A DNA stretch of 64,000 nucleotides, taken from Gemmatimonadales bacterium (lineage in GTDB: Bacteria > Gemmatimonadota > Gemmatimonadetes > Gemmatimonadales > GWC2-71-9). This document shows positions 12,085 to 53,791 of the stretch, piece by piece. The notes beneath the pieces are model-generated. The model saw only the letters and a list, made by a program, of their open reading frames with translations, did not search any database and had not been told where the DNA came from. The translations under genes were made by a program, and so were the position numbers. How positions within the stretch are numbered: position 1 is the first letter of the stretch; every line of letters begins with the position of its first letter. The DNA is taken from NCBI GenBank assembly GCA_035702425.1, contig DASSQQ010000042.1, positions 4,605 to 68,604 of the forward strand, read 5' to 3'.

Positions 12085-12085
12085 C

Positions 12086-13480
12086 GTGGCCGACCAACCG
12101 ACTCTGCAGTTCCTGGGCGCCGCCGGCACGGTCACGGGCTCGATGCACCTCGTCACCGCGGGCGGGAGCCGGGTGCTGCTCGACTGCGGGCTCTATCAGG
12201 GCCTGAAGGACCTGCGCCAGCGGAACTGGGGCACGCGGCTGGTGGATCCCGGTACGGTCCGCGCCATCGTGATGAGTCACGCCCACATCGACCACTCGGG
12301 ATACCTGCCGCTGGTGGTGCAGCAGGGCTTCCGGGGGCCCATCTACTGCACCGCCGCGACGGCGGACATCCTGGGCGTGGTGCTCCCGGACGCGGCGCAC
12401 CTGCAGGAAGAAGACGCGGAGCGCGCCAATCGCCACGGGTACACCAGGCACCGCCCGGCCCTCCCGCTCTACACCTCGGCGGACGCGGCCGCGGCGCTGA
12501 AGCTGCTCCAGACCCGGCGCTACGAGACCGCGTTTCCGGTGGCGCCGGGGATCACGGCGCTGTATCGCCGGGCCGGGCACATCATGGGCTCGGCCACGAT
12601 CGAGCTGTCGCTCGCCGGCCCTCCGCCGAGCACCCTGGTGTTCACGGGGGACCTGGGACGGTACGACCGTCCCATTCTTCTCGATCCGGAACCGGTCCCG
12701 GCCGCGGACGTGCTGCTCCTCGAGTCCACCTACGGCGACCGCGCCCATCCCGCGGGCGACGACCAGGAGCTGGCGCGGATCGTGAACGACACCGCGAAGC
12801 GCGGCGGGGCGCTCCTCATTCCGGCGTTCGCGGTGGACCGCACCCAGGAACTGCTGTGGATGCTGCGCCGGCTGGAAGACCAGAAAAAGATTCCGGTGCT
12901 CCCGGTCTACGTGGACAGCCCGATGGCGAACGCGGTCACCGGGATCTACGAAAAGCATCCCGAGGAGTTCGACGCCGACATGCGGGCCGAGGCGCGCACC
13001 GGGGATCCGCTCGAGACCCGGCGCTGCACCATGGTGAGCTCCACCGAGGAGTCGAAGAAGCTGAACGGCGTCCGCGGGCCGGTGATCATCATCTCCTCCT
13101 CGGGAATGGCGTCGGGCGGGCGCATCCTCCATCACCTGGCGCTCCGTCTCCCCGATCCCCGGACCACGGTGCTGCTCGTGGGCTACCAGGCGGCGGGGAC
13201 GAGGGGACGCACCCTGCAGGACGGCGGCAAGACGGTGCGCATTTTCGGGCAGGAAGTGACCATCGCGGCGCGGGTGGAATCCCTCCACGGCCTCTCCGGC
13301 CACGCCGACCGCGACGAGATCGTCCGCTGGCTCGGCGGCTTCACCAGACCGCCGAAGGTGACCTACCTGGTTCACGGCGAAGGCGAGAGCGCGAAGAGTC
13401 TCGCCGCCTACCTCACCCAGAAGCTCCGCTGGACCGTCAAGGTCGCCGCGGACGGGGAGACGGTGCCGCTCCGAGTCTGA
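12086..13480 (+). CDS. MBL-fold beta-CASP family metallo-hydrolase (RNA-processing-nuclease-like)
   Basis: HAHIDHSGY metal-binding motif and C-terminal beta-CASP motifs (GHADRDEI). GTG start 2 nt after the SulP stop. Confidence 0.7.
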   Translation: MADQPTLQFLGAAGTVTGSMHLVTAGGSRVLLDCGLYQGLKDLRQRNWGTRLVDPGTVRAIVMSHAHIDHSGYLPLVVQQGFRGPIYCTAATADILGVVLPDAAHLQEEDAERANRHGYTRHRPALPLYTSADAAAALKLLQTRRYETAFPVAPGITALYRRAGHIMGSATIELSLAGPPPSTLVFTGDLGRYDRPILLDPEPVPAADVLLLESTYGDRAHPAGDDQELARIVNDTAKRGGALLIPAFAVDRTQELLWMLRRLEDQKKIPVLPVYVDSPMANAVTGIYEKHPEEFDADMRAEARTGDPLETRRCTMVSSTEESKKLNGVRGPVIIISSSGMASGGRILHHLALRLPDPRTTVLLVGYQAAGTRGRTLQDGGKTVRIFGQEVTIAARVESLHGLSGHADRDEIVRWLGGFTRPPKVTYLVHGEGESAKSLAAYLTQKLRWTVKVAADGETVPLRV

Positions 13481-13614
13481 AGAAGTCTTCCGGTCGCCTT
13501 CACCTTCATTCCCGCTTCAGCTTCGTACACTCCGCCTCGAATTCCTGATGGTCACCCGCGAGGGCCGGCTCACGTCCGTCGGCCTCGCTCGTCACCAAGC
13601 CCCGGAGGTTCGCG

Positions 13615-14034
13615 GTGGTCCGTTCGCCCCTCGTCGCAGCCGTTCTGGTCCTCGCCGTCGCCGCCTGCGGACCGAGCCAGCCCCGGCCGCCCAAGATGCC
13701 GGCGCTTCCGGGGATGGCGGCGAGTCCGCCGCCCACCATCACCGGCAACGACCCGCGGGCCTACCTCTTCATCGAGAAGGGGTGCCCCACCTGCCACTCG
13801 ATCTCGGCCCTGGGCGTGAAGTCCGGCACCGAAGTCGGGCCCGACCTCGCCAAGGCTTACGAGGACGTGCAGAGCCGGTTCGGCGAGCCGCTGGAGCAGT
13901 TCCTGCCCAACCCCACCGGCACGATGCAGATGGTGCTCTCCCAGCTGATTCACCTGACGCCGGCGGAGCGCGACTCCGTCATCCACATCCTGAAGCGCCT
14001 GCACGACGAACCGCAGGCGGGACACGAGCCATGA
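13615..14034 (+). CDS. mono-haem c-type cytochrome lipoprotein (the cy-c gene of clade II nos clusters)
   Basis: GTG start with GGAGG 6 nt upstream. Signal peptide with lipobox LAVAAC. Single CPTCH haem-binding motif. Confidence 0.7.
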   Translation: MVRSPLVAAVLVLAVAACGPSQPRPPKMPALPGMAASPPPTITGNDPRAYLFIEKGCPTCHSISALGVKSGTEVGPDLAKAYEDVQSRFGEPLEQFLPNPTGTMQMVLSQLIHLTPAERDSVIHILKRLHDEPQAGHEP

Positions 14035-14057
14035 CCTCGAGCAGGGGAGAAACGCAT

Positions 14058-15953
14058 ATGACCGTTCGACACTGGATCGCCCTCGCGAGCGCCGCGCTGG
14101 TCGGCGCGTGCACGCCGTCGCGCGCGCCGTCCTCCGGGCAGAACAGCCAGCTCGCCGACGTCCGCGACGCCGCGATGCGGACCTACGTGGCGCCCGGCAA
14201 GCTCGACGACTACTACCTGTTCTACTCCGGCGGGCACTCCGGCAACGTCTACGTCGCCGGGATTCCGTCGATGCGGCACATCATCACCATCCCGGTCTTC
14301 ACGCCCTATCCCGCCACCGGCTACGGGTTCGACGAGGACTCGAAGGCGATGCTGGGCGGCTACACCTGGGGCGACGTGCATCACCCCGCGCTCTCCAAGA
14401 CCAAGGGTGATTACGACGGCCGCTGGCTCTTCGTGAACGACAACGCGAACAATCGCCTGGCGCGGATCGATCTCCGGGACTTCAAGACCAAGCAGATTCT
14501 GGGTCCGATTCCGAACTCGAGCGGCAACCACGGCTCGGCGTTCCTCACCGAGAACTCGGAGTACGCGCTGGTGGCGAGCCGGTTCTCGATTCCGCTGCCG
14601 CGCGGCACCTACGCCCCGCTCTCCGACTACGCCACCAAGTACCACGGCGTGGTGAGCGGGATCAGGATCGACAGCGCCACCGGCACCATGTCGGTCGGCT
14701 GGCAGATCGTCACTCCACCCTTCGACTGGGACCTCGCGTCCACCGGGCGGGACAGCTCGCGGGACTGGGTGGTCTGGACGTCGTACAACACCGAGCGCGC
14801 CACCGGCCGGCTCGAGGTCGCGGCCAGCCAGCGGGAGCGCGACTACATGATCTTCGTCAACTGGCGTAACGCGACCGCGGCCGCCGCGGCGGGCAAGGGC
14901 CGGATGCTGGACGGGGTGCGGGTGCTCGATCCCCGGGACCTGGCGGGCTCGATTTTCCTCGTGCCCTGCGCCAAGAGCCCGCACGGCGCCGACTTCTCGC
15001 CCGACGGGCGCTACGTGATGTGCAACGGCAAGCTCGCGCCCTACGTGACCGTCTTCGACTTCCAGAAATTCCTCTCCGCGGCCCAGACGCACGACACCGT
15101 GGGCAACGAGGACGGGATTCCGGTGCTGCGCTACGAGTCGGTGCGGGTGGCCGAGGTCCCGGTGGGCCTGGGGCCGCTGCACACCCAGTTCGACGATCAG
15201 GGCTACGCCTACACCTCGCTCTTCGTCGAGTCCGCGGTGGCGAAGTGGAAGGTCGGCCCCTTCGACGGGCACGACTCGTCGCTGGTGGTGGCCAAGATTC
15301 CGGTGCACTACTCGGTGGGCCACCTCGTGGTGGCGGGGGGCGACACCCGGCATCCCTACGGCAAGTACCTGGTCTCGATGAACAAGCTCTCCAAGGGCCA
15401 GCACCTGGACATCGGACCGTCGCAGCCCGAGTCCTCGGAGCTGATCGACATCACCGGCACCGGGATGACGGAGCTGTACGAGGCGTTCACCGAGCCGGAA
15501 CCACACTTCGCGCAGATCGCGGCCGCCTCGCTGCTGCATCCGATCGAGGTCTATCCCAAGGAAGAGAACAAGGACCCCAACGCGATCTGGGCGGCGAGCG
15601 ACGCCAAGGTCACGCGGCGCGGGAACGTGGTGGAAGTGAAGCTCTACGCCATCCGCTCCTACTTCGCGCCCAACGCCATCGAGGTGAATCAGGGCGACTC
15701 GGTGATCATCCACGTCACCAACGCCGAGCAGGAGCGGGACATGCTGCACGGCTTCGGAATCGCGAGCTACAACATCAACCTGGTGCTCGATCCCGGCGAG
15801 ACCAAGACGGTGGCGTTCCGCGCCGGCAAGACGGGCGTCTACCCGTTCTACTGCACCAACTTCTGCTCCGCGATGCACCAGGAAATGCAGGGTTATCTCC
15901 TGGTGAAGCCGCGCGGCGGCGCGGGGGCCGCGGCATCGGGTGGGGGCCGCTGA
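14058..15953 (+). CDS. nosZ: nitrous-oxide reductase NosZ, clade II (Sec/lipoprotein-type signal, no twin-arginine)
   Basis: Beta-propeller CuZ domain plus C-terminal CuA motif YPFYCTNFCSAMHQEMQGY. N-terminus MTVRHWIALASAALVGAC has no RR motif and a lipobox. SD GGGGAGA precedes the ATG at 14058. An in-frame ATG at 14031 is an alternative start. Confidence 0.9.
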   Translation: MTVRHWIALASAALVGACTPSRAPSSGQNSQLADVRDAAMRTYVAPGKLDDYYLFYSGGHSGNVYVAGIPSMRHIITIPVFTPYPATGYGFDEDSKAMLGGYTWGDVHHPALSKTKGDYDGRWLFVNDNANNRLARIDLRDFKTKQILGPIPNSSGNHGSAFLTENSEYALVASRFSIPLPRGTYAPLSDYATKYHGVVSGIRIDSATGTMSVGWQIVTPPFDWDLASTGRDSSRDWVVWTSYNTERATGRLEVAASQRERDYMIFVNWRNATAAAAAGKGRMLDGVRVLDPRDLAGSIFLVPCAKSPHGADFSPDGRYVMCNGKLAPYVTVFDFQKFLSAAQTHDTVGNEDGIPVLRYESVRVAEVPVGLGPLHTQFDDQGYAYTSLFVESAVAKWKVGPFDGHDSSLVVAKIPVHYSVGHLVVAGGDTRHPYGKYLVSMNKLSKGQHLDIGPSQPESSELIDITGTGMTELYEAFTEPEPHFAQIAAASLLHPIEVYPKEENKDPNAIWAASDAKVTRRGNVVEVKLYAIRSYFAPNAIEVNQGDSVIIHVTNAEQERDMLHGFGIASYNINLVLDPGETKTVAFRAGKTGVYPFYCTNFCSAMHQEMQGYLLVKPRGGAGAAASGGGR

Positions 15954-16567: not shown

Positions 16568-17844
16568 TGCTGGGGCTCTTCCTCGCTCTCGTCGCCCAGG
16601 ACACGCTCCGGCTCCCGCCCGGCGTCACCCGCGGGCCCCTGGTGCTCGACCGGCCCACGGTGGTGCTGGGCGCGCCCGGTGCCGTGCTCCGGGGCGAGGG
16701 GCGGGGGAGCGTGATCGTGGTCAACGCCCCGCACTGCGTGGTGCGCGGCCTGCGGATCGAAGGGAGCGGCCGCGACCTCGACCAGGACGACGCGGGGGTG
16801 ATGATCCGCGCCGACTCGGTCACCCTCGAGGATCTCGTGATTCGCGACGTGCTCTTCGGGGTCTACCTGTACCAGGTGCGGGGCGCGCGCCTCGCCCGGC
16901 TGGACATCGCGGGCGCGGCGGCGGCGCGGGAGAGCTCGCAGGGGAACGGCATCGAGTTCTACTACTCGCGCGACGTGCGGGTGGACAGCGCGACCATCAC
17001 GGGGGTGCGGGACGGGATGTACTTCGCCTACTCGGACAGCGTCACCGTGTCCGGGAGCGCGGTCCGGGGCGTGCGGTTCGGCCTGCATTTCATGTTCAGC
17101 CACGACGACCGGTTCGCGCGGAACACCTTCACCGACAACGCGGCGGGCGCGGTGCTGATGAACTCGACCGGGGTCCGGGTCGAGGACAACGTGTTCGCGT
17201 GGAACGGGGGCAGCCGCTCCTACGGCCTGGTGCTCCAGACCGCCACGGCGCCCGTCGTCACCGGAAATCTCCTGGTCGGCAACGGCGTGGGCGTGCTGTT
17301 CGACAACGTGATCCGGGGCGCCTTCCGGGGGAACCTGGTCGCGGCGAACTGGCTGGGTCTCGAGCTCTTCAATTCGAGCGAAGGGACGGCGATCACCGGG
17401 AACGCGCTCGCCGGGAACACCTTCGACGCCACCGGGGGCGGTCTCGCGGGCGCCTACACCCTCTGCGAGGGCGGGCGCGGGAACTACTGGGCGCGCGCGG
17501 CGTCCGAGGGCTACGACCTGGACGGCGACGGGGTGCTGGACGCGCCGCACCCCGCGGGCTCGCCCTTCGCGGCGCTGGCCGTGGCGCGGCCGGGACTCCG
17601 GCTCTTTCTCGAGAGTCCCGCGGCGCGCACCCTCGACTGGGCGGAGCGGAGCTTCCCGGTTTTCGATGCCGGGGGAGTGACCGACGGCTGTCCGCTCGCG
17701 CGCCCGCCGGCGACGCCGGCGCTCGATCGCCTGCCGCCGGCGCCCCGGGGCTCGGAGGGTGGCGCCGGCGGTCAGCGCGCGGCGGGAGGGATCGCTCTCG
17801 CACTGGGCGCCGTGGCACTGGCCTTCGCGAGGCGGCGCGGGTGA
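16566..17844 (+). CDS. nosD: NosD, periplasmic right-handed beta-helix copper-processing protein
   Basis: Parallel beta-helix repeats (…GNGIEFYYSRDVRVDSATITGVRDGMYFAYSDSVTVSGSAVRG…). ATGA overlap with nosB. Confidence 0.8.
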
Positions 17845-18599
17845 TCATTTTCGAGCGCGCTGCGCGACGCTACGGCTCCCGCCTGGCGCTCGAGGCGCTC
17901 ACGCTCCGCGTGGCGCCGGGCGAAGTGGTGGCGCTGGTCGGTCCCAACGGGGCCGGGAAGTCCACCACGCTCCGCATCGCGGCCGGCCTGGTGCGCCCGA
18001 CGGAGGGCCGCGCCACCATCGCCGGCTTCGACGTGCAGCGCGATCCCGCCCAGGCCCGCCGGCGGATGGGCTATCTCCCCCAGAAGCTCGGCGTCCCGCT
18101 CTCGACCGGTCTCGCCGATCTGGCGCGCCTCGTGGCGTCGGCGCGCGGGCTTCGGCCCGCGGCGGGGAGCGCGGCGCTCGCCGCCGCCGGCCTGGCGGAC
18201 CGCGCCGATGCGTCGCTCGCCGAACTGTCCGGCGGCCAGCGCCAGCGCGCGATGCTCGCGCTCGCCACCCTGGGCGACGTCGCGGCCCTGCTCCTGGACG
18301 AGCCCACCATCAGTCTCGACTCGGACGGCGCGGAGGAAGTGCGCGCCGCGATCGCCCTCGCGAGCGGGCGCGGGGCGGCCGTGCTCTTCGCCTCGCACCA
18401 TCTGCACGACGTGGCGGTCCTCGCCGACCGCGTGGTGGTGATGGTGGAGGGGCGCGTCGCCGCGGCGGGCACCCTGCCCGAGCTCGCGGCCTCGGTGGGC
18501 GTGTCCTGGACCGCCGACGCGGAGGACCCGCCGATCGAGCGGGTGTATCGGCGTCTGGTGCGCGGCCGGGTCGCGCTGGTGCGGGGAGACGCCGCGTGA
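17841..18599 (+). CDS. nosF: NosF, ABC ATPase
   Basis: Walker A GPNGAGKST, signature LSGGQRQR and Walker B LLLDEPT. The GTG start overlaps the nosD stop. Confidence 0.8.
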   Translation: MIIFERAARRYGSRLALEALTLRVAPGEVVALVGPNGAGKSTTLRIAAGLVRPTEGRATIAGFDVQRDPAQARRRMGYLPQKLGVPLSTGLADLARLVASARGLRPAAGSAALAAAGLADRADASLAELSGGQRQRAMLALATLGDVAALLLDEPTISLDSDGAEEVRAAIALASGRGAAVLFASHHLHDVAVLADRVVVMVEGRVAAAGTLPELAASVGVSWTADAEDPPIERVYRRLVRGRVALVRGDAA

Positions 18600-19506: not shown

Positions 19507-20427
19507 ATGACTGCCAAACCCGTGATCGCCGGAGTGGACGGCTCGCCCGAATCGGTGCGCGCCGCCGCGCTCGCCTGCCGCCTCGCCGAAGCGCGGGGGG
19601 TGAAGTGCCTGCTGGTCCACGTGGTTCCGGACGTCTGGAGCGCCGCCAGTCTCACCGCGGTGCCCGCGTTCACGCCGGAGTTCGCCGAGGAGATGATCGA
19701 GGCCGCGCGCGCGCGGGTGGTGGGCGCGTTGCGCCGCGCGGTGCCCGCCGGCGCGGTGGAGGACCTGCGGATCCTCACCGGCCGTCCCGCGGCGCAGCTC
19801 GCCGAGTTCGCGCTGGAGCACGGGGCGCAGCTGATCGTGATCGGCGGGAAGCATCACGGGCTCGTCGCCCGGGGCCTGGGGCGAAGCACGGCGCACCACC
19901 TGGTGCGGCGGCTCGACGTCCCGGTGCTGGTGGTGGGCGACCACGCCGGCCCGATCCGCCGGGTGCTGGTGCCGGTGGACCTCTCGCCCGCCGCGGCGCC
20001 CACGCTCGCGGCGGCGGACCGTCTGGCCCGCGAGAACGAAGCGGTGCTTCGCGTCCTCCACGTGGTGGAGCCGATCCCCTTCTTCGACGGGATTCCCATC
20101 ACGGTGGATCAGCAGGACCTGTTCACCTTCTCGGCGCGGGATTTCGAGAAGCAGCTGGCCACGCTCGGGAAGGAGCGGCGTTGCGAGCGAGTGGTGCGGC
20201 GCGGGCCCGCGGCGGACGTGATCACCGAGGAGACGATCACCAGCAAGGCGGACGCGGTGGTGATGGGCTCGCACGGGAAGGGCTGGGTGGACCGGCTGCT
20301 GATCGGCAGTGTGACCGAAACCGTGCTCTCCGCGCTGCCGGCGTCGGTGCTGGTGGTGCCCACGTCCTCGGAAGCGCGGCGGCGTGCCGCGGCACCCAAA
20401 GCGAAGAAAGCGAAGGTGGAGGCATGA
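19507..20427 (+). CDS. tandem-domain universal stress protein (UspA x2)
   Basis: Two Usp domains, each ending in the G-x-2-G-x-9-G(S/T)-like ATP-binding motif (GSHGKGWVDRLLIGSVTE). Confidence 0.85.
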   Translation: MTAKPVIAGVDGSPESVRAAALACRLAEARGVKCLLVHVVPDVWSAASLTAVPAFTPEFAEEMIEAARARVVGALRRAVPAGAVEDLRILTGRPAAQLAEFALEHGAQLIVIGGKHHGLVARGLGRSTAHHLVRRLDVPVLVVGDHAGPIRRVLVPVDLSPAAAPTLAAADRLARENEAVLRVLHVVEPIPFFDGIPITVDQQDLFTFSARDFEKQLATLGKERRCERVVRRGPAADVITEETITSKADAVVMGSHGKGWVDRLLIGSVTETVLSALPASVLVVPTSSEARRRAAAPKAKKAKVEA

Positions 20428-45425: not shown

Positions 45426-46364
45426 ATGAGACTCACGACGCTCGCCGTGGCCGCCGCGCTCCTGGGTGCGGCCTGCAAGCTGCCGGATAAGACTCAGCGC
45501 AGCTCCGACATGCCGCCTGCCCCGCCCGCCCCCGCGGCGGCCACCAAGGTGTTGGCGGTGGACGGGTTCCTCGCGCCCGAGTCCGTGCTCTACGACTCGA
45601 CGCAGGACATCTACTTCGTTTCCAGCATCGCCGGCAGCGGTACCGCCAAGGACGACAACGGCTTCATCAGCCGGCTCCGCCCCGACGGCGCCATCGAGAA
45701 CCTGAAGTTCATCGAGGGCGGGAAGAACGGCGTCACCCTGAACGCGCCCAAGGGTCTGGCCATCGTGGGCGACACCCTGTGGGTGGCGGACATCGACGTG
45801 GCGCGCGCCTTCAACGCCAAGACCGGCGCGCCGGTGGACAGCGTCAGTCTCGCCCCGCTGGGAGCGGTGTTCCTGAACGACATCGCCGCGGCGCCGACCG
45901 GCGCGCTCTATCTCACCGACACCGGAATCCGCTTCGACGACGTCGGCAACCGGCTCCATCCCGGTCCCGACCGCATCTACCGCATCGGCCCCGACCGCCA
46001 GCTGACCGTCGCCGCGCGGGGCGACACCCTGGACCAGCCCAACGGCATCGCGCTCGACGGCCCGGGGAAGCGGTTCATCGTGGTGTCCCTGGGCGGAAAG
46101 TCGGTCTTCGCCTGGAAGCCGGGCGACAAGTCCCCCGCGGTGCTCGCCACCGGCCCCGGCTCCTACGACGGCGTGGTGGTGGCGAAGGGCAGGATTCTGG
46201 TGTCGTCGTGGAAGGACTCGACGGTCTCCGCCTACGAGACCGGCCAGGAAGTCCGGATCATTTCGGGCGTCGGCGCGGCCGACATCGGCTACGACGCCAG
46301 GCGCAACCGCCTGCTGCTGCCCTTCGTCGACGGCACGCGGGTGGAAATCTGGCAGCTCCCCTAG
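45426..46364 (+). CDS. beta-propeller lipoprotein (SMP-30/gluconolactonase/LRE-like), paralog 1
   Basis: Lipobox LLGAAC. Shares ~60% identity with the gene at 47078..47998, including the identical nucleotide run TTCATCGAGGGCGGGAAGAACGGCGTCACCCTGAACGCGCCCAAGGGTCT. Confidence 0.6.
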   Translation: MRLTTLAVAAALLGAACKLPDKTQRSSDMPPAPPAPAAATKVLAVDGFLAPESVLYDSTQDIYFVSSIAGSGTAKDDNGFISRLRPDGAIENLKFIEGGKNGVTLNAPKGLAIVGDTLWVADIDVARAFNAKTGAPVDSVSLAPLGAVFLNDIAAAPTGALYLTDTGIRFDDVGNRLHPGPDRIYRIGPDRQLTVAARGDTLDQPNGIALDGPGKRFIVVSLGGKSVFAWKPGDKSPAVLATGPGSYDGVVVAKGRILVSSWKDSTVSAYETGQEVRIISGVGAADIGYDARRNRLLLPFVDGTRVEIWQLP

Positions 46365-46382
46365 ACGAGCGAGGAGGCCCGC

Positions 46383-47081
46383 ATGGTCGTCCCGGTTCAG
46401 CTCCCGACTGCCCAGCGCGACGTCCAGGTGGGTGGCGTCACCTACCACGTCGAGGGTGAGCTCGTTCCCGTGCTGCACCTCGAGCTGCAGCGGATGCCGG
46501 TGTACTTCGAGCATCACATTCTGCTCTGGAAGAGTCCCGGCGTGGAGGTGGACATCAAGCCGCTCAAGGGCGCGTTCAAGCGGGTGATGGCCGGAATGCC
46601 GGTGTTTCTCACCCAGACCAAGGGCGTGGGGCACATCGCGTTTTCGCGGGACGGCGCGGGACACGTCTTCGGCATCCACCTGAAAGAGGGGCAGGCGATC
46701 GACGTGCGCGAGCATCAGTTTCTCGCGGCCACCGACAACGTCGAGTACTCCTTCGCCCGGGTGAAGGGCGTGGCCAACATGCTCTTCGGGGGGACCGGGT
46801 TCTTCATCGACACCTTCGCCTGCAAGAGCGGGAGCGAAGGCGTGGTCTGGCTCCACGGCTACGGCAACGTGTTCGAAGTAACCCTCAAGCCCGGGGACAT
46901 GATCGACGTCGAACCCGGCGGCTGGGTCTACAAGGACCCCACCGTCAGGATGGAGACCATGACCCAGAAGCTTTCCACCGGACTCTTCGGCAGCGCCGGC
47001 ATGCTGTTCTGGAACAGGTTCCACGGCCCCGGCCGGCTCGCCATTCAGTCCATGTACCTGCACCTGCCAACGGAGGCGTGA
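46383..47081 (+). CDS. AIM24/DUF124 family protein
   Basis: 232 aa with the typical AIM24 beta-rich pattern (…GGTGFFIDTF…GEGVVWLHGYGNVFEVTLKPGDMIDVEPG…). Confidence 0.65.
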   Translation: MVVPVQLPTAQRDVQVGGVTYHVEGELVPVLHLELQRMPVYFEHHILLWKSPGVEVDIKPLKGAFKRVMAGMPVFLTQTKGVGHIAFSRDGAGHVFGIHLKEGQAIDVREHQFLAATDNVEYSFARVKGVANMLFGGTGFFIDTFACKSGSEGVVWLHGYGNVFEVTLKPGDMIDVEPGGWVYKDPTVRMETMTQKLSTGLFGSAGMLFWNRFHGPGRLAIQSMYLHLPTEA

Positions 47082-47998
47082 TTTTCATGAGGCTCGACCG
47101 TCACACCCTCGCGGCGGCGTTCGCCGTCGTCACCGTGAGCGCGTTCGCGCGCCCGGCCCGCGCCCAGGGCGCGACCCGCGTCGCCATCGTGGACTCGCTC
47201 CAGACGCCGGAGTCGGTCAAGTACGACGCCGGGCGCGACATCTACTGGATCTCCAACATCAACGGCACCCCCTCCGCCAAGGACGGGAACGGATTCATCA
47301 GCAAGGTCCGTCCCGACGGCTCCATCGTGGCGCTCAGGTTCATCGAGGGCGGGAAGAACGGCGTCACCCTGAACGCGCCCAAGGGTCTCGCCCTGAAGGG
47401 CGATACGCTTTGGGTGACCGACATCGACGCCGTGCGCGCCTTCAACGCCAACACCGGCGCCCCGGTCGCTTCGGTGGACCTCTCGGCGCTGGGCGCCGTG
47501 TTCCTGAACGACCCCGCGTTCGGCCCCGACGGCGCGCTTTACGTCACCGACACCGGCATTCACATCGACGAGAAGGGGCAGTCCACCCATCCCGGACCCG
47601 ACCGCATCTTCCGGATCGCGCCCGACCGCAAGGTGACGGTCGCCGCCGAGGGTGCCGCGCTCGAGGCGCCGAACGGCATCACCTGGGACACGGCGCACGG
47701 CCGGTTCGTGGAAGCGGGCTTCGGCGGGCCGGACGTCTTCAGCTGGAAGCCGGGGGAAAAGGCGCCCACCGCCATCGCCAAGGGGCCGGGCGGCTTCGAC
47801 GGCGTGGAGATCGTGAAGGGGCGGCTCCTGATCTCGTCGTGGGCCGACTCCACGGTGTCGGCGTACGAGACGGGAACCGAAGTGAAGATCATCACCGGGG
47901 TGCCGAGCCCGGCCGACTTCGGCTACGACGCCAGGCGGAACCGGGTCCTGATTCCCAACATGACGGCGAACCGGATGGAGATCTGGCAGCTGCCGTAA
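47078..47998 (+). CDS. beta-propeller protein (SMP-30/gluconolactonase/LRE-like), paralog 2
   Basis: Signal peptide. Paralog of 45426..46364. Its start overlaps the AIM24 stop (ATGA). Confidence 0.6.
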   Translation: MIFMRLDRHTLAAAFAVVTVSAFARPARAQGATRVAIVDSLQTPESVKYDAGRDIYWISNINGTPSAKDGNGFISKVRPDGSIVALRFIEGGKNGVTLNAPKGLALKGDTLWVTDIDAVRAFNANTGAPVASVDLSALGAVFLNDPAFGPDGALYVTDTGIHIDEKGQSTHPGPDRIFRIAPDRKVTVAAEGAALEAPNGITWDTAHGRFVEAGFGGPDVFSWKPGEKAPTAIAKGPGGFDGVEIVKGRLLISSWADSTVSAYETGTEVKIITGVPSPADFGYDARRNRVLIPNMTANRMEIWQLP

Positions 47999-48053: not shown

Positions 48054-49130
48054 TCACCCGCCTGCTTCAGGTTCTTGCTGCGTCAGGCAGTGGATCGTCC
48101 CCAGCCCCCAAACCAGGTCCACGGCGTGAATCCCCACCACCGGCCGGTCCGGAAAGACTTCGGCCAGAATCCCTAACGCCTCCCGGTCCTTCGGGTCGTT
48201 GAAGGTGGGGACCAGCACCGCCGCGTTCGCGACGTAGAAATTGGCGTAGCTCGCGGGCAACCGCTGGCCGTCGAAGACGAGCGGCGCCGGCATCGGCAGG
48301 TCCACCACTTCGATTTTCGATCCGTCCTCGGTGACGAGCCCCTGCAGTCGCTCGCGGTTCTCCGCGAGTGGCGCGTAGTTCGCGTCCCGGGGGTCCGCCT
48401 CCACGCAGAGGACCACGGTGCTCGGCCCCACGAAGCGGCAGAGGTCGTCCACGTGGCCGTGGGTGTCGTCCCCCGCGATTCCCCGTCCCAGCCAGAGCAC
48501 GTTGGTGGCGCCCAGGTAGTCGCGCAACACGCTCTCCAGGTCGGTGCGCGAAAGCCCGGGGTTCCGGGTCTGCACCACCGGGTCGAGCAGGCACTCCTCG
48601 GTGGTGAGCACCGAGCCCTCGCCGTTGACGTCGATGCTCCCGCCCTCCAGCACCACCCGGCGCCCCCGCAACTCGGCGTCGAAGATCTTCCGGCGGAGCT
48701 TCTTCGCCGCGAACTCGGGGAGCTTCCGGTCCTTCTTCCAGTCCGGATACTTGGCCCAGGCGTTGAAGTGGAACCGGGAGACCGCGATTTCCGGCGCCGG
48801 CTCTCCGCGCCGCACGAAGATCGGCCCCGAATCCCGGGTCCAGCCGCGGTCGGTGGGGAAGCGGAGGAACCGGACCCGCGCGAGACTCGCCCCCGCCTTC
48901 TCGAGCACCCGCCGGGCGGCGCGCTCCTGTGCCGGCGAGCTCACCAGAATCCGCGCCGTCTCGCCTTCCGCGATCCGGCGGGTGATTTCGCCGTACACCC
49001 AGGGGATGACGGCGAGCTTCCCCGGCCAGTCGCTCGCGTTGTGGGGCCAGGCGAGCCAGGTCGCCGCGTGGGGCGCCCACTCGGCCGGCATCCGGAAACC
49101 GAGCGCGGCGGGGGTGGGGAGCACCTTCAT
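48054..49130 (-). CDS. aguA: agmatine deiminase
   Basis: Full-length member of the peptidyl-arginine-deiminase-like family, with the C-terminal catalytic Cys motif GTIHCLTQQ. Confidence 0.85.
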   Translation of the reverse strand: MKVLPTPAALGFRMPAEWAPHAATWLAWPHNASDWPGKLAVIPWVYGEITRRIAEGETARILVSSPAQERAARRVLEKAGASLARVRFLRFPTDRGWTRDSGPIFVRRGEPAPEIAVSRFHFNAWAKYPDWKKDRKLPEFAAKKLRRKIFDAELRGRRVVLEGGSIDVNGEGSVLTTEECLLDPVVQTRNPGLSRTDLESVLRDYLGATNVLWLGRGIAGDDTHGHVDDLCRFVGPSTVVLCVEADPRDANYAPLAENRERLQGLVTEDGSKIEVVDLPMPAPLVFDGQRLPASYANFYVANAAVLVPTFNDPKDREALGILAEVFPDRPVVGIHAVDLVWGLGTIHCLTQQEPEAGG

Positions 49131-49164
49131 CGAGATGAGGAAGAGGAGCGGGACCGACGCCGCA

Positions 49165-50073
49165 CTACCGGGCGTCGCCCGAGTAGCGCGCGTCGATCCC
49201 GCCGTAGGCGTCCACCCGGCGGTCGCGCCAGAAGGGCCAGTTGCGCCGGACCTCCTCCACCCGCGCCAGGTCCACCTCGGCGACCAGAATCGTCTCCTGG
49301 TCCGCCGGGGCTTCGGCCACCACCACCCCGAACGGGTCGGCGAGGAACGACGAGCCCCAGAACTCGATCCCGTCGCCCTTGCCGTCGAGCCGCTCCAGGC
49401 CCACGCGATTGACCGCCGCCACGTAGCACCCGTTGGCGATGGCGTGGCTCCGCTGGATCGTACGCCAGGCGTCCCGCTGCTCGGGACCGTACCGCTGCTT
49501 CTCGGCCGGATGCCAGCCGATCGCCGTGGGATAACAGAGCAGCGTCGCGCCCTGGAGCGCGGTGAGCCGCGCGCCTTCCGGATACCACTGGTCCCAGCAC
49601 ACCAGGGTGCCCACCCGGCCGGCCTTGGTGTCGAAGGCGCGGAACCCCAGGTCGCCGGGCGCGAAGTAGAACTTCTCGTAATACGCCGGGTCGTCCGGGA
49701 TGTGCATCTTCCGGTAAAGACCCAGGACCTTCCCGTCGGCGTCGATGATCGCGGCGGTGTTGTGGTAGATCCCCGCCGCCCGGCGCTCGAAGAGCGACGC
49801 GATCACCACCACCCCCAGTTCCCGGGCGACCTGGCCCAGCGCCTCGGTGGAGGGCCCGGGCACCGGCTCGGCGAGGTTGAAGAACGCGTGATCCTCGCGC
49901 TGCCCGATGTAGAGAGTGCGGAACAGCTCGGGAAGGACGACCAGCGCGGCCCCCCGCTTCGCGGCGTCCCGCACCCGCGCGATGGCCTTCTCGAGATTCT
50001 GGCCGGGGTCCGCCGTCATGCTCATCTGCACCAGCGCGACCTTGTACTTCGCGGGCGTCCGGAGATCGGTCAT
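49165..50073 (-). CDS. aguB: N-carbamoylputrescine amidase (carbon-nitrogen hydrolase family)
   Basis: Nitrilase-superfamily catalytic triad context (VVLPELF…, RKMHIP, LVCWDQWYPE). Start taken at MTDLRTPAKYKVALVQ. Confidence 0.85.
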   Translation of the reverse strand: MTDLRTPAKYKVALVQMSMTADPGQNLEKAIARVRDAAKRGAALVVLPELFRTLYIGQREDHAFFNLAEPVPGPSTEALGQVARELGVVVIASLFERRAAGIYHNTAAIIDADGKVLGLYRKMHIPDDPAYYEKFYFAPGDLGFRAFDTKAGRVGTLVCWDQWYPEGARLTALQGATLLCYPTAIGWHPAEKQRYGPEQRDAWRTIQRSHAIANGCYVAAVNRVGLERLDGKGDGIEFWGSSFLADPFGVVVAEAPADQETILVAEVDLARVEEVRRNWPFWRDRRVDAYGGIDARYSGDAR

Positions 50074-50149
50074 AAGGAGGGAACAGTACAACCGGGAGAC
50101 GGGAGGCGGGAGACGGGCGGCGTCCCCGGCTCGCGTCTCCCGATTCCGG

Positions 50150-51238
50150 TCAGCCGACCAGCACCGCCTCCAGCTCGGTCTGGAGCTGGGGTTGTTTATA
50201 GCGGTAGCGCTTGCCGGCGTAGTTCCTCAAGACCACTTCCTTGTCCGTGATCTTCACCACGTACTCGGGGAGGAGGGGAATCTTCCCGCCGCCGCCCGGC
50301 GCGTCGATCACGAAGTGCGGCACCGCGAGGCCCGAGGTCCAGCCCCGGAGCCCCTTCACGATCTCGAGGCCCTTCTCCACCGTGGTCCGGAAGTGCTCGG
50401 CGCCGGCCACCTGGTCGCACATATAGATGTAGTAAGGGCGGACCCGCGCCGCGAGCAGTTTCTGCATCAACAGCTTCATCACTTCGACGTCGTCGTTCAC
50501 GCCGGCCAGGAGCACGGTCTGGCAGCCGAGGGGAATCCCGGCGTCGGCCAGCATGCCCAGGCCGGCCACCGCGGCGGGCGTGAGCTCGTCGGGGTGGTTG
50601 AAGTGGGTATTGATGTAGAACGGATGATACCGTTTGAGGATCGCGCACAGCTCGGGCGTGATCCGCTCCGGCAGGTGGCAGGGGACCCGGCTGCCGATGC
50701 GGATGATCTCGAGGTGGGGGATCGCCCGCAGGCGCTTCAGGATTTCATCCAGGCGCCGGTCGGAGAGCAGCAGGGGATCGCCGCCCGACATGATGACGTC
50801 GCGGATTTCCTTGTGATCCTCGAGATACTGGAACCCGGACTCGAGCTGGGAGAGCGGGATTTTCTCCGGATCGCCCACCTTGCGGCGGCGGGTGCAGAAC
50901 CGGCAGTACGACGCGCAGACCGGGGACACGAGGAACAGCGCCCGGTCCGGATAGCGGTGGGTGATGTTGGGGACGGGGGAATCCGCGTCCTCGTTCAGCG
51001 AATCCACGATGCCGTCGTGGACCTCGAGCTCCTGCAGGTCCGGCACGTACTGCCGCCAGATCGGGTCGCCGGGGGACTTGATCAGGTCCACCATCGCCGG
51101 CGAGATGCGGAACTCGAAGTTCTCCGCCGCGAGGCGGAGGCGCTCCAGGTCGGGGAAGTGCTCGGGTCCGAACCGGGCCGCGAGCGTCTCCAGCGACGCG
51201 ATGCTTTTCTTACGAAGCAGCTCTTGCCAGGACTCCAT
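50150..51238 (-). CDS. KamA-family radical-SAM aminomutase (lysine 2,3-aminomutase-like, short form)
   Basis: CASYCRFCTRR (CxxxCxxC) followed by a PLP-binding region. 362 aa. Confidence 0.8.
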   Translation of the reverse strand: MESWQELLRKKSIASLETLAARFGPEHFPDLERLRLAAENFEFRISPAMVDLIKSPGDPIWRQYVPDLQELEVHDGIVDSLNEDADSPVPNITHRYPDRALFLVSPVCASYCRFCTRRRKVGDPEKIPLSQLESGFQYLEDHKEIRDVIMSGGDPLLLSDRRLDEILKRLRAIPHLEIIRIGSRVPCHLPERITPELCAILKRYHPFYINTHFNHPDELTPAAVAGLGMLADAGIPLGCQTVLLAGVNDDVEVMKLLMQKLLAARVRPYYIYMCDQVAGAEHFRTTVEKGLEIVKGLRGWTSGLAVPHFVIDAPGGGGKIPLLPEYVVKITDKEVVLRNYAGKRYRYKQPQLQTELEAVLVG

Positions 51239-51710
51239 GCGTCAGGTCCTTGAGATAGATGACCAGGTCGTCACCGGGAGCGTAATAGCCCGGAAGCACC
51301 GCGGCCCTGGTGAAGCCGCGTTTTTCGTAAAACGCCCGCGTCGGCGCGTAATCCGCGCGGGATGACGTCTCGACCACCACCAGCCGGCCCCCGCCGGCCC
51401 GCACCTGCCCCTCCACTTCCCGGAGCAGGTCGCTGCCCACCCCGGTCCCGTGCCGCGCCGGATCCACGGCGATCCAGTACAGGTCCCAGGTCCCGTCGGT
51501 GCCCGGCGTCGGCCCCCAGCAGGCCCACCCCACCAGCTCGTCGGCGGCGTAGGCGCCGACCAGCCGGTAGTCGTCGTCCCCCGCGAGGGCATCGTCCAGG
51601 AGCTCGACCGCGGTCCGGACTTCTTCCTCGCGGAAGACGCCCGTGGCGCGGGTCAGGGCTTCAAGACGTGCGCGTTGCGCGCGGCCGACGGGGCGGAGCG
51701 AGCAGCTCAC
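51210..51710 (-). CDS. GNAT-family acyltransferase
   Basis: 166 aa. Acetyl-CoA motif region HGTGVGSDLL. Overlaps both neighbouring genes, so the exact start is uncertain. Confidence 0.6.
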   Translation of the reverse strand: MSCSLRPVGRAQRARLEALTRATGVFREEEVRTAVELLDDALAGDDDYRLVGAYAADELVGWACWGPTPGTDGTWDLYWIAVDPARHGTGVGSDLLREVEGQVRAGGGRLVVVETSSRADYAPTRAFYEKRGFTRAAVLPGYYAPGDDLVIYLKDLTHGVLARAAS

Positions 51711-52680
51711 GCGCGGCCTTCGCTCCCTGCGCCTCCCGCAGCGCGACTTCGGCGACGCGGCGCACCAGCTCGGCGTAATCCCACCCGGCGGCCTTCGCCA
51801 TCCGGGAGAGGCCCGCCTCGTCCGTCAGGTCGGGGTTGGGATTCACCTCGAGCACCCAGGGCCGGCCGGTGTCGTCCACCCGGAGGTCCACCCGGCCGTA
51901 GCCCTTGCCCTGCATCACCTGCCACGCCCGCTCCGCAGTGCGCACCAGCCGGTCGGCGAGGCGCTGCGAGATGTGGGCCGGCACCACCGGCACGCTCCCC
52001 ACGTCCTCCGCCGACCCGGTGTGCCACTTCGCGGCGTAGGTGAGGATCGGCCAGCTCCCCTCCGGCATTCCGGTGAAATCGATCTCGGCGACGGGCAGCA
52101 CCCTCGAGCCCACGAAGCCGACGTTGAATTCGCGGCCGGGGATGTACTGCTGGACCAGCACCTCGTCGAACTGCTCGGTCATCGCGGCGACCTGCGCTTT
52201 CAGCGCCTTGCGGTCGGTGACCACCGAGGCCTTGTCGAGTCCCGCGCTCGCGTCTTCCGCGGCGGGCTTGATGATGGCGGGCAGCGGGAAGTCGTCGTCG
52301 ATGCGGCCCTGCGCCACCGCCCACGCCGGGATCGGCACGCCGGCGCGGGCCAGGATGGTGTTGGCGATCGGCTTGCGCCGGCACGCCGCCACGGTCCAGG
52401 AGCCGCAGCCGGTGAAGGGGATGCCGGCGAGCTCCAGCACCGCGGCGACGTGGTCCTCCCAGTCCTGCACCCCGTGCACGCCCTCGCAGAGGTTGAAGAC
52501 CAGGTCGGCGCGGCGCGCGGCGGTGAGCCAGCGCATGTCGTGCTTCACCGGAACCTTCTGCGCCTGATGGCCGATGCCGGTGAAGATCTCGGCGATCTCG
52601 TCCACCGCCTGCATCACCCCGGCGATGTCCTCCGGGGTCCAGTCCCCCGCTCCCGGGTCGTACAGAATGACCAGTTTCAC
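51661..52680 (-). CDS. D-alanine--D-alanine ligase-family ATP-grasp enzyme (paralog 2)
   Basis: ATP-grasp fold motifs (…PLPAIIKPAAEDASAG…, …GRVDLRVDDTGRPWVLEVNPNP). The GTG start overlaps the upstream paralog's stop (GTGA). Confidence 0.7.
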   Translation of the reverse strand: MKLVILYDPGAGDWTPEDIAGVMQAVDEIAEIFTGIGHQAQKVPVKHDMRWLTAARRADLVFNLCEGVHGVQDWEDHVAAVLELAGIPFTGCGSWTVAACRRKPIANTILARAGVPIPAWAVAQGRIDDDFPLPAIIKPAAEDASAGLDKASVVTDRKALKAQVAAMTEQFDEVLVQQYIPGREFNVGFVGSRVLPVAEIDFTGMPEGSWPILTYAAKWHTGSAEDVGSVPVVPAHISQRLADRLVRTAERAWQVMQGKGYGRVDLRVDDTGRPWVLEVNPNPDLTDEAGLSRMAKAAGWDYAELVRRVAEVALREAQGAKAARELLAPPRRPRATRTS

Positions 52681-53732
52681 GCGAACGCCTCCCGGGCCAC
52701 TTCCAGCTCCCGTCCGTGGACGCGCCGCCAGGCGAGCCGGACCACTTCCTGGATCAGCTCGTCGTAGGAGAGCCCCGCCACCCGCGCGGCTTTGGGGAAG
52801 CAGGAGTTCATCCGGGGGTCGGGGATGATGCCGGGGAGCGGATTCAGTTCCACCACGTTGGGCACGCCGAAGCGATCCATCCGGATGTCGATGCGGCACC
52901 AGTCGCGGCAGCCGAGGGCGCGGTAGGCGGCGAGCGCGACCCGCTCCACGGCGTCGGCGACGCTCGGGGGCACCCGCGCCGGGCACTGGAAGATGTCGAG
53001 CTGATGCTCGGCCGTGTCCCAGATCCACTTGGCCTCGTAGCCGTAGACCGGCGTCGCGCCCTCGGGGAGGGTGGCGAAGTCGAACGCGACGAGGGGGAGA
53101 CAGCGCGCGCCGGCGCCGTTGCCGAGAATGGCGGCGGTGAACTCCTGGCCGGGGAGGTAGGTCTCGACCAGGACCGGCTGGTCGTATTCTTCTAAGAGGA
53201 AGAGGCCCCGCTCCCGGAGGGCCCGGGGGCCTTCGCATAAGTTGTTGGCAAATATGCCTTTACCGGATCCTTCGCCGACCGGTTTCACGAACAGCGGGAA
53301 GGGGAGTCCGACCCGGTCCAGGTCCCGCGCGGTCTCCACCAGCACGAACGGCGCGGTGGGGATGGCGCGGTGCGCGAGGATTTCCTTGGTGCGCGCCTTG
53401 TGGAGGGTGAGCGCGAGAGTGAGCGGGTCGGAGCCGGTGTAGGGAACGTTCAGGTACTCGCAGATCGCCGGCACGTGGGCTTCGCGATTCAGGCCGTGCA
53501 GTCCCTCGGCCATGTTGAAGACCAGGTCGGGACGGGCGAGCGCGAGTTTTTGGGGGAAGAGCGGATCGGCTTCGAGGCGGATGACGGGACCGAAGAAACT
53601 GAGGGCCTGCTCCACCGCGCTGATGGTGGTGGGCTCGTCCCATTCGACGAACGCGTCGCCGCTACGACTGGGCGGCTCGTCGGCCAGGGTGCCGGGATCG
53701 GGTTTCTCGTTGTATGCGAGACCGATTCGCAT
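52677..53732 (-). CDS. D-alanine--D-alanine ligase-family ATP-grasp enzyme (paralog 1)
   Basis: Motifs …PFPLFVKPVGEGSGKGI…, …CRIDIRMDRFGVPNVVELNPLPG. RBS GGAGGT before the ATG. Confidence 0.75.
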   Translation of the reverse strand: MRIGLAYNEKPDPGTLADEPPSRSGDAFVEWDEPTTISAVEQALSFFGPVIRLEADPLFPQKLALARPDLVFNMAEGLHGLNREAHVPAICEYLNVPYTGSDPLTLALTLHKARTKEILAHRAIPTAPFVLVETARDLDRVGLPFPLFVKPVGEGSGKGIFANNLCEGPRALRERGLFLLEEYDQPVLVETYLPGQEFTAAILGNGAGARCLPLVAFDFATLPEGATPVYGYEAKWIWDTAEHQLDIFQCPARVPPSVADAVERVALAAYRALGCRDWCRIDIRMDRFGVPNVVELNPLPGIIPDPRMNSCFPKAARVAGLSYDELIQEVVRLAWRRVHGRELEVAREAFA

Positions 53733-53754: not shown

Positions 53755-53791
53755 AAAAAAGGCCGCACGGTGACGCGGTCTAAAAAACGCC
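53755..53791 (-). terminator. intrinsic terminator for thyX (hairpin GACCGCG-tcacc-GTGCGGCC followed by TTTTTTG on the minus strand)
   Basis: GC hairpin flanked by A6 and T6 runs in an otherwise AT-poor genome, ~100 nt downstream of the thyX stop. Two further GC palindromes (GTCGCGCGAC, GCGACGCGCGTCGC) lie at ~53860-53895. Confidence 0.45.

Follow-up and report, generated by a model that had tools for sequence, protein, structure and literature searches.

What is made by six tightly packed genes of a soil Gemmatimonadales bacterium? The genes lie on the minus strand, at 48054-53732 of a window of 64,000 nucleotides (nt), the whole stretch of DNA analyzed here (positions 4,605 to 68,604 of the 95.6-kb contig DASSQQ010000042.1), which comes from a soil metagenome. 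They encode two ATP-grasp ligases of the D-alanine--D-alanine ligase (Ddl) fold, called AG1 and AG2 in the following, a small GNAT N-acyltransferase, a short KamA-family aminomutase, and a pair of enzymes resembling AguB and AguA. A sequence-only reading of the window had described these six genes, their coordinates and their tight junctions, had assigned their families, and had proposed one pathway leading to an amide-linked small molecule, such as a beta-aminoacyl dipeptide or a polyamine conjugate. The gene descriptions have been borne out: an independent gene caller also predicted the open reading frames (ORFs) on the source contig, and Pfam and NCBIfam confirm all six families. As for the product, a small amide-linked molecule derived from beta-lysine is still the best reading. 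The unit that makes it has become smaller: four of the genes form a module that, on balance, probably makes beta-lysine and builds from it a small, N-acetylated, doubly amide-linked compound, and the agu pair is probably separate from it, at most an optional source of putrescine.

The distribution of the genes carries the main part of this answer. A KamA profile was run against genomes, each species being represented by one, and yielded 80 loci, which were then compared by tBLASTn with the six window proteins; a second scan, of metagenomes, was anchored on AG2. The four-gene module of AG1, AG2, GNAT, and KamA was found in at least ten phylum-level lineages (Gemmatimonadota, Rokubacteria, Acidobacteriota, Verrucomicrobiota, Ignavibacteria, Bacteroidota, Desulfuromonadales, Desulfobacteria, Planctomycetota, and Chloroflexota), and in two gene orders. 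The order AG1-AG2-GNAT-KamA occurs in Gemmatimonadota, Rokubacteria (there without the GNAT), Aminicenantes, Verrucomicrobiota, Ignavibacteria, a Bacteroidetes metagenome-assembled genome (MAG), and Desulfuromonadales. The order KamA-AG1-AG2-GNAT occurs in Rikenellaceae/Bacteroidales, Blastopirellula, Anaerolineales, and a Desulfobacteria MAG. A Christensenellaceae locus (L071) has the pair of AG1 and KamA alone. The GNAT is present in 84 of the 92 related loci that carry ligase matches and KamA, and AG1 lies upstream and KamA downstream in 34 of the 38 evaluable metagenomic loci found via AG2. Several lineages have joined the genes into single proteins. Among the representatives at the 50% identity level, KamA is fused to AG1 in five clusters (P0128, P0150, P0159, P0185, and P0211) and to AG2 in one (P0171), and a GNAT-KamA fusion is also present, AG1 being the commonest ligase fusion partner of KamA. 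A Blastopirellula marina MAG (L062, ~10879-12357) encodes AG2 and GNAT as one protein of 513 amino acids (aa). Because the grouping recurs in 84/92 loci, in many phyla and in fusion proteins, it is far beyond chance.

The surroundings of the module have little in common. Its flanks are unrelated between phyla, and genes on the opposite strand often abut its borders. A Pfam census of 129 flanking ORFs revealed no enriched family, and all-against-all clustering of the ORFs of 81 loci revealed no further conserved partner beyond lineage-specific synteny, which comprises thyX and an FAD oxidase in Gemmatimonadota and recG in Ignavibacteria. In Gemmatimonadales the module keeps a stable syntenic position beside thyX. 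Recurrence, fusions, and unrelated flanks thus identify the four genes as an autonomous, anciently assembled unit, and the recurrent combination of KamA, two ligases, and GNAT that the sequence-only reading had put forward is real. It had also stated that the combination is not an established pathway, and this stands: the module turned up nowhere in a full-text literature search, although one survey likely to bear on it (Iyer et al. 2009) was beyond the reach of that search.

The chemistry of the module would start with the aminomutase. The gene (50150-51238, minus strand) encodes a short KamA-family protein of 362 aa, a radical S-adenosylmethionine (SAM) and pyridoxal phosphate (PLP) enzyme with Pfam Radical_SAM and LAM_C domains, whose NCBI product name is 'KamA family radical SAM protein [Gemmatimonadales bacterium]'. 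It passes the general KamA model of NCBIfam (TIGR00238, 285 bits, cut-off 199). The specific equivalog models all score below their curated cut-offs, as they do for the other five proteins, and the best resemblance is to lysine 2,3-aminomutase: the AblA/KamA equivalog TIGR03820 gives 442 bits (cut-off 525), with a match that stops at model position 364 of 417, followed by glutamate 2,3-aminomutase with 387 bits (cut-off 650), arginine aminomutase with 321 bits, and EpmB, which fails with 224 bits (cut-off 369). The protein aligns with the lysine 2,3-aminomutase of C. subterminale (2A5H) at E = 3e-110. Residues C108, C112, and C115 match the CxxxCxxC cysteines C125, C129, and C132, K319 matches the PLP lysine K337, and R117, D275, and D312 match R134, D293, and D330. 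In 2A5H, Asp293 and Asp330 contact the epsilon-ammonium group of lysine and Arg134 contacts its carboxylate. Glutamate-type aminomutases recovered in the same representative search have K/N at positions 293/330 and are clearly separate. Since the residues that bind lysine, PLP, and the cluster are kept, the KamA-like enzyme is inferred to make beta-lysine from L-lysine. It departs from 2A5H by an Asp in place of Cys268 and by its end, where only 44 residues follow the PLP lysine and the C-terminal zinc (Zn)/oligomerization region is missing. Across Gemmatimonadales, KamA identities run from 84 to 91% in more than 100 clusters.

A short KamA of about 55% identity was also found in Nitrospirota (L031, L034-L040, L072), in a different conserved context that contains no AG or GNAT genes. 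Upstream lie a protein of 470-535 aa without a Pfam match and an ORF of ~100 aa read as glutaredoxin-like, and downstream five more conserved genes. This context may represent another uncharacterized beta-lysine system.

The two ligases provide the second part of the argument. AG1 (52677-53732, minus strand, 351 aa) is the first gene of the module and AG2 (51661-52680, minus strand, 339 aa, with a GTG start) follows it; they are the only Ddl-like sequences in the window. Both match Pfam Dala_Dala_lig_C (AG1 E = 1.5e-28, AG2 E = 7e-28), and their nearest solved structures are Ddl proteins (E = 1e-27 for AG1). They share 33% identity, AG2 being an ancient paralogue of AG1. The Ddl subfamily model NF002378, with a cut-off of 243 bits, gives 162 bits for AG1 and 150 for AG2, and all equivalog models score far lower. 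Ligase residues are cited in the numbering of E. coli DdlB, the first 59 residues of this reference being approximate. The residues K97, K144, E187, K215, R255, D257, E270, and N272, which serve ATP and Mg binding and the acyl-phosphate, are invariant in 31 AG1 orthologues. The same catalytic set is invariant in 27 AG2 orthologues except for E270, which is E in 24/27 and D in 3/27.

The D-Ala site (Tyr216, Ser150, Gly276, Ser281, and Leu282) has changed. Tyr216 of DdlB is replaced by Trp in 22/31 AG1 and in all 27 AG2 orthologues, including both window proteins. AG1 keeps S150, G276, and S281, has L282C/D together with a four-residue loop insertion, and shows the signature E-x-N-P-L-P-G...N-S-[CD]; in its N-domain the acidic residues D26, D32, E76, and E84 are invariant among the 31 orthologues. 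AG2 carries S150A, and its orthologues have G276D (24/27), S281A (21/27), and L282G (27/27), with the signature N-P-N-P-D-[IL]-S-x-D-A-G. The nucleophile loop of AG2 has thereby gained a conserved Asp and lost the carboxylate-binding Ser/Leu of Ddl. AG1 and AG2 are predicted to be active ligases with specificities other than that of Ddl.

The GNAT gene (51210-51710, minus strand) encodes 166 aa and matches Acetyltransf_1 with E = 1e-12 and 48.9 bits (cut-off 20.7). Its acetyl-CoA loop R-x-x-G-x-G is intact (RHGTGVG), and D76, Y78, W79, G92, F127, and Y128, which include a C-terminal FY motif, are invariant in 52 distant orthologues. The protein is ~50% identical over 137 residues (E = 1.3e-36) to PDB 2R7H, presumably from a Desulfovibrio species and likely an orthologue. 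The entry is named merely 'putative D-alanine N-acetyltransferase of GNAT family', and a literature search on 2R7H found no paper on its function.

From these parts a route can be proposed. KamA would convert L-lysine to beta-lysine. AG1 would take beta-lysine directly and form the first amide bond through an acyl-phosphate intermediate; it is assigned this first use because it is the commonest fusion partner of KamA and its sole partner in the Christensenellaceae locus. AG2 would form the second amide bond, probably with a cationic amine, either an amino group of beta-lysine or a polyamine, as the loss of Ser/Leu carboxylate binding and the gain of Asp suggest. The GNAT would then acetylate a remaining free amine. 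The expected product is a small N-acetylated pseudo-peptide or amide of beta-lysine in the cytoplasm, similar in logic to N-epsilon-acetyl-beta-lysine and to N-acetylglutaminylglutamine amide, and it may serve as osmolyte or stress solute or as a polyamine-like cation. Acetylation or methylation of amines is a classic route from basic compounds to compatible solutes.

Several points weigh against this proposal. The chemistry proposed after beta-lysine formation is inferential, and the succession in which the two ligases and the GNAT would act is provisional. Acetylation cannot be universal, as the GNAT is absent from L011, from the Rokubacteria loci L013 and L015, and from L144. The KamAs of the module do not form a single clade in a rough neighbor-joining tree, so that the module may have recruited different aminomutases in different lineages. 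Many modules come from non-saline habitats, which lends no particular support to an osmolyte role. Finally, AG1 and AG2 also occur without KamA and GNAT, in a polyamine operon described below, and should KamA be missing from the genomes concerned, specificity of the ligases for beta-lysine would be in doubt.

Does the agu pair belong to the same pathway? The aguB-like gene, for an N-carbamoylputrescine amidase, lies on the minus strand at 49165-50091 with a TTG start (308 aa) or at 49165-50073 with an ATG start (302 aa, the product of the independent gene caller), and the aguA-like agmatine deiminase gene at 48054-49130 (minus strand, 358 aa). AguB matches CN_hydrolase (E = 1e-67, 228 bits) and TIGR03381 with 310 bits against a cut-off of 410; AguA matches PAD_porph (E = 4e-113, 378 bits) and the NCBIfam agmatine deiminase models with 261-281 bits against cut-offs of 382-483. 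The agmatine deiminase and N-carbamoylputrescine amidase equivalogs are the best NCBIfam matches of AguA and AguB, though below cut-off, and the translations contain the CWDQWYPE motif with the catalytic Cys of AguB and the C-terminal GTIHCLTQQ motif of AguA. The two would form an ordinary pair converting agmatine to putrescine.

Their position next to the module is peculiar to this Gemmatimonadales lineage. aguB adjoins the module in none of the 23 close relatives whose contigs extend far enough downstream. Three relatives (L099; L103, at 10655-15073; L115) show the order KamA-gltB-aguB-aguA on one strand, with aguBA ~5 kb away; the intervening gltB, a lone glutamate synthase large subunit of 1472 aa, is missing at this place in the window. 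In other relatives KamA runs into an EF-G-like gene that sits beyond aguA in the window. The absence of adjacency in all 23, the intervening gltB in three, and the EF-G-like gene in others establish aguBA beside the module as a lineage-specific juxtaposition, outside the conserved module, and the adjacency in the window looks like a secondary loss of gltB. The agu genes were likewise not found beside the module in other phyla: for about ten phyla, no AguA, AguB, SpeB, or PdaD is encoded within 8 kb of any of the other modules, and no polyamine family ranks in the top 25 of the flank census. An aguB near KamA in a Verrucomicrobiota locus (L082) was judged coincidental, with chemotaxis and response-regulator genes between the two.

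A link to polyamines appears in a second context of the ligases. Eight Thermodesulfobacteriota/Syntrophaceae-like contigs (L151, L152, L165-L170) have an AG1-AG2 pair that shows the signature motifs of the module's ligases, and lack KamA and GNAT. In seven of them the operon order is agmatinase, pyruvoyl arginine decarboxylase, AG1, AG2, SAM methyltransferase, a protein of 76-93 aa with two transmembrane segments, two GT4 genes, and a methyltransferase; the contig of L152 is incomplete and shows AG1-AG2-methyltransferase only. The genes overlap or nearly so, the SAM methyltransferase overlapping AG2, and the operon spans 5500-9885 in L151 and 4477-13402 in L169. A deoxyhypusine-synthase-family gene heads it in L167 and L169 only. 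Agmatinase, pyruvoyl arginine decarboxylase, and the deoxyhypusine-synthase-family protein all score above their NCBIfam cut-offs, and the synteny is kept down to 63% AG2 identity. A methyltransferase would hold here the place that the GNAT has in the module. In two lineages the ligase pair is thus tied to enzymes of putrescine synthesis that are not homologous, AguAB in one and SpeB/PdaD in the other, which is suggestive but not compelling. As AG1-AG2 lie inside an arginine decarboxylase/agmatinase operon, a polyamine co-substrate of the ligases is possible.

These two contexts allow the six genes of the window to be weighed as one pathway, in which putrescine, agmatine, or homospermidine is an obligatory ligase substrate, the product is a beta-lysyl- or aminoacyl-polyamine conjugate, and the polyamine genes lie elsewhere in most genomes. 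Such a pathway would account for aguB and aguA following on the same strand after 58-76 nt, with no clear terminator between, and for the three relatives that keep aguBA within 5 kb. It would also fit the Thermodesulfobacteriota operon, and the Asp and the lost Ser/Leu in the AG2 loop, which suit a cationic amine without a carboxylate. This explanation is nevertheless rather unlikely, given the missing adjacency in close relatives, the absence of polyamine genes around the other modules, the apparent loss of gltB, and support that comes from two lineages only. The proposal of the sequence-only reading that all six genes serve one pathway is accordingly not supported, as they are not one conserved unit. 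Its polyamine link has fared in two ways: aguBA are not co-conserved with the module, and the agmatinase/arginine decarboxylase operon provides an independent link of AG1-AG2 to putrescine. A wider formulation makes the AG1-AG2 cassette the core of a phylum-spanning system, coupled either to beta-lysine synthesis (KamA and GNAT) or to agmatine/putrescine/homospermidine synthesis (arginine decarboxylase and agmatinase, at times a deoxyhypusine-synthase-like gene, and a methyltransferase), that would build a new class of N-capped cationic pseudo-peptides or polyamine amides, or in its boldest form place a beta-lysyl or polyamine-type group on a protein such as elongation factor P (EF-P); it is a long shot, less probable than the single six-gene pathway.

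Three further explanations leave the agu genes aside. Beta-lysine is an antibiotic building block, as in the beta-lysine chains of streptothricins, and ATP-grasp ligases build several dipeptide antibiotics, so the module could be conceived as a small antibiotic or secondary-metabolite cluster for a beta-lysine peptide. Its patchy distribution and two gene orders suggest some horizontal transfer, but the flanks contain no conserved exporter, resistance, or regulator gene, and the stable thyX synteny and high KamA identity in Gemmatimonadales fit a vertically inherited physiology, which makes an antibiotic cluster very improbable. Slightly less probable still is the attachment of beta-lysine to a protein such as EF-P by one of the ligases. 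Some ATP-grasp enzymes, RimK for instance, act on proteins, the KamA-like enzyme resembles EpmB in being short and in having no C-terminal domain, and the deoxyhypusine-synthase family found in the other context of AG1-AG2 is one that modifies eIF5A. Against this stand the far better score of the AblA model than of the EpmB model, the Ddl type of the ligases, which is that of small-molecule enzymes, the absence of any conserved small substrate ORF beside the module, and the absence of an efp homologue from 170 loci and from the window. That AG1 and AG2 might be ordinary peptidoglycan D-Ala-D-Ala ligase paralogues, placed beside unrelated genes by chance, is hardly credible: they match Ddl best in Pfam, NCBIfam, and PDB alike, but the scores remain well below the subfamily cut-off, the specificity positions have changed in both and most in AG2, no murein genes lie nearby, and the ligases co-occur strictly with KamA and are fused to KamA and to GNAT. 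In treating the ligases as other than ordinary Ddl, the sequence-only reading is supported.

The preferred reading, a module that turns beta-lysine into an acetylated amide, can be set beside known systems, which share the enzyme families of all its parts and, in the abl and NAGGN pathways, a similar logic. Like abl (AblA/AblB), it couples a lysine 2,3-aminomutase translationally to a GNAT acetyltransferase, with the lysine-binding residues and the acetyl-CoA motif kept. In contrast to abl, its KamA is ~55 residues shorter, lacks the Zn/oligomerization C-terminus, and scores below the AblA cut-off; its GNAT is unrelated in sequence to AblB (~270-280 aa); and it always has two dedicated ATP-grasp ligases, in some lineages fused to KamA or GNAT. 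The earlier statement that this is not a canonical abl pair was confirmed by a BLASTP comparison of the GNAT with a 278-aa neighbor of another KamA gene, labeled AblB-like from sequence and context, which found no similarity (E = 0.12). Canonical ablB-type neighbors (family f18) adjoin other KamA genes in the same survey.

In the synthesis of N-acetylglutaminylglutamine amide (NAGGN) by Ngg and AsnO, GNAT and ATP-grasp domains fused in Ngg make a small N-acetylated peptide solute. The AG2-GNAT fusion of the Blastopirellula MAG recalls the fusion in Ngg, a likeness by description. The module differs in having two ligases and a radical-SAM enzyme that forms a beta-amino acid, and it has no amidotransferase, a function not represented in the 25 commonest families around the module. 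With the Ddl/VanA family AG1 and AG2 share the fold and the ATP-grasp catalytic residues, and differ from it in specificity residues, in scores below the family cut-offs, and in the lack of a murein context. EpmB/EpmA also combine a short KamA-family aminomutase lacking the C-terminal domain with an ATP-dependent ligation of beta-lysine; there the ligase is a paralogue of lysyl-tRNA synthetase and not an ATP-grasp enzyme, and epmB typically clusters with efp (PMC2821294), whereas the module has no efp linkage and its aminomutase fails the EpmB model.

That at least ten phyla possess an operon joining the formation of beta-lysine to two amide ligases of its own suggests that the metabolite is widespread. 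Its carriers include the abundant soil Gemmatimonadales, Rikenellaceae of gut and rumen, Ignavibacteria, Planctomycetes, and sulfate or metal reducers. The system is tractable, with four genes, no obvious accessory factors needed, and a crystal structure of a GNAT orthologue already available (2R7H). AG1 and AG2 should no longer carry the name D-alanine--D-alanine ligase, and the aminomutase of the module should not count as evidence for lysine fermentation. The polyamine operon, to which one lineage links the ligases, could lead to a new branch in the metabolism of polyamines or cationic solutes.

Two neighbors of the module in other genomes deserve mention. In L019 (7903-9651), a protein of 582 aa with a weak GNAT-like N-terminus and a histone-deacetylase/acetylpolyamine-amidohydrolase domain begins 10 nt after KamA; it is a single instance, and could be a deacetylase for the acetylated product. 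In Rikenellaceae (L054, 11371-11739, and L055), the GNAT gene is overlapped at its end by a gene for a small membrane protein of the DMT_6 (DUF486) family, which also occurs near the module in L032, three loci in all. The protein might be a transporter of the product.

The junctions and borders of the genes in the window, whose G+C content is ~70%, are as follows. An AGGAGG lies ~14 nt 5' of the AG1 ATG. AG1 and AG2 overlap in a GTGA at 52677-52680, AG2 and GNAT by 50 nt, and GNAT and KamA by 29 nt; aguB starts 58-76 nt after KamA, depending on the start codon, and 34 nt separate aguB from aguA. Between thyX and AG1, a hairpin CCGCGTCACCGTGCGG followed by the T-run CCTTTTTTGT (53763-53778, minus strand) forms a terminator-like 5' border of the transcription unit of the module. 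The KamA-aguB spacer (50092-50149, minus strand) contains a G+C-rich inverted repeat, GGGAGACG...CGTCTCCC, without a clear T-run. A terminator scan gave no match on the minus strand of this spacer, and Rfam matches it only by chance, with mir-H1 on the plus strand (E = 0.78); the inverted repeat may act as an attenuator or as a terminator without T-run. Rfam revealed no riboswitch or leader 5' of the module, either in the window or in eight other loci.

Elsewhere in the window, an AIM24-family gene lies between two paralogous SGL-family (SMP-30/gluconolactonase-like) genes at 45426-47998, convergent with aguA, and related Gemmatimonadales contigs have this SGL-AIM24-SGL trio, or parts of it, downstream of the module as well. 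An 801-aa nosZ-like protein with nitrous-oxide-reductase propeller and cupredoxin domains is encoded at 13548-15953, and after it come genes for an ABC ATPase (17199-18599) and for a tandem universal stress protein (19507-20427). The segment 18001-20000 is the composition extreme of the window, with a G+C content of 0.765 and an AT skew of -0.33.

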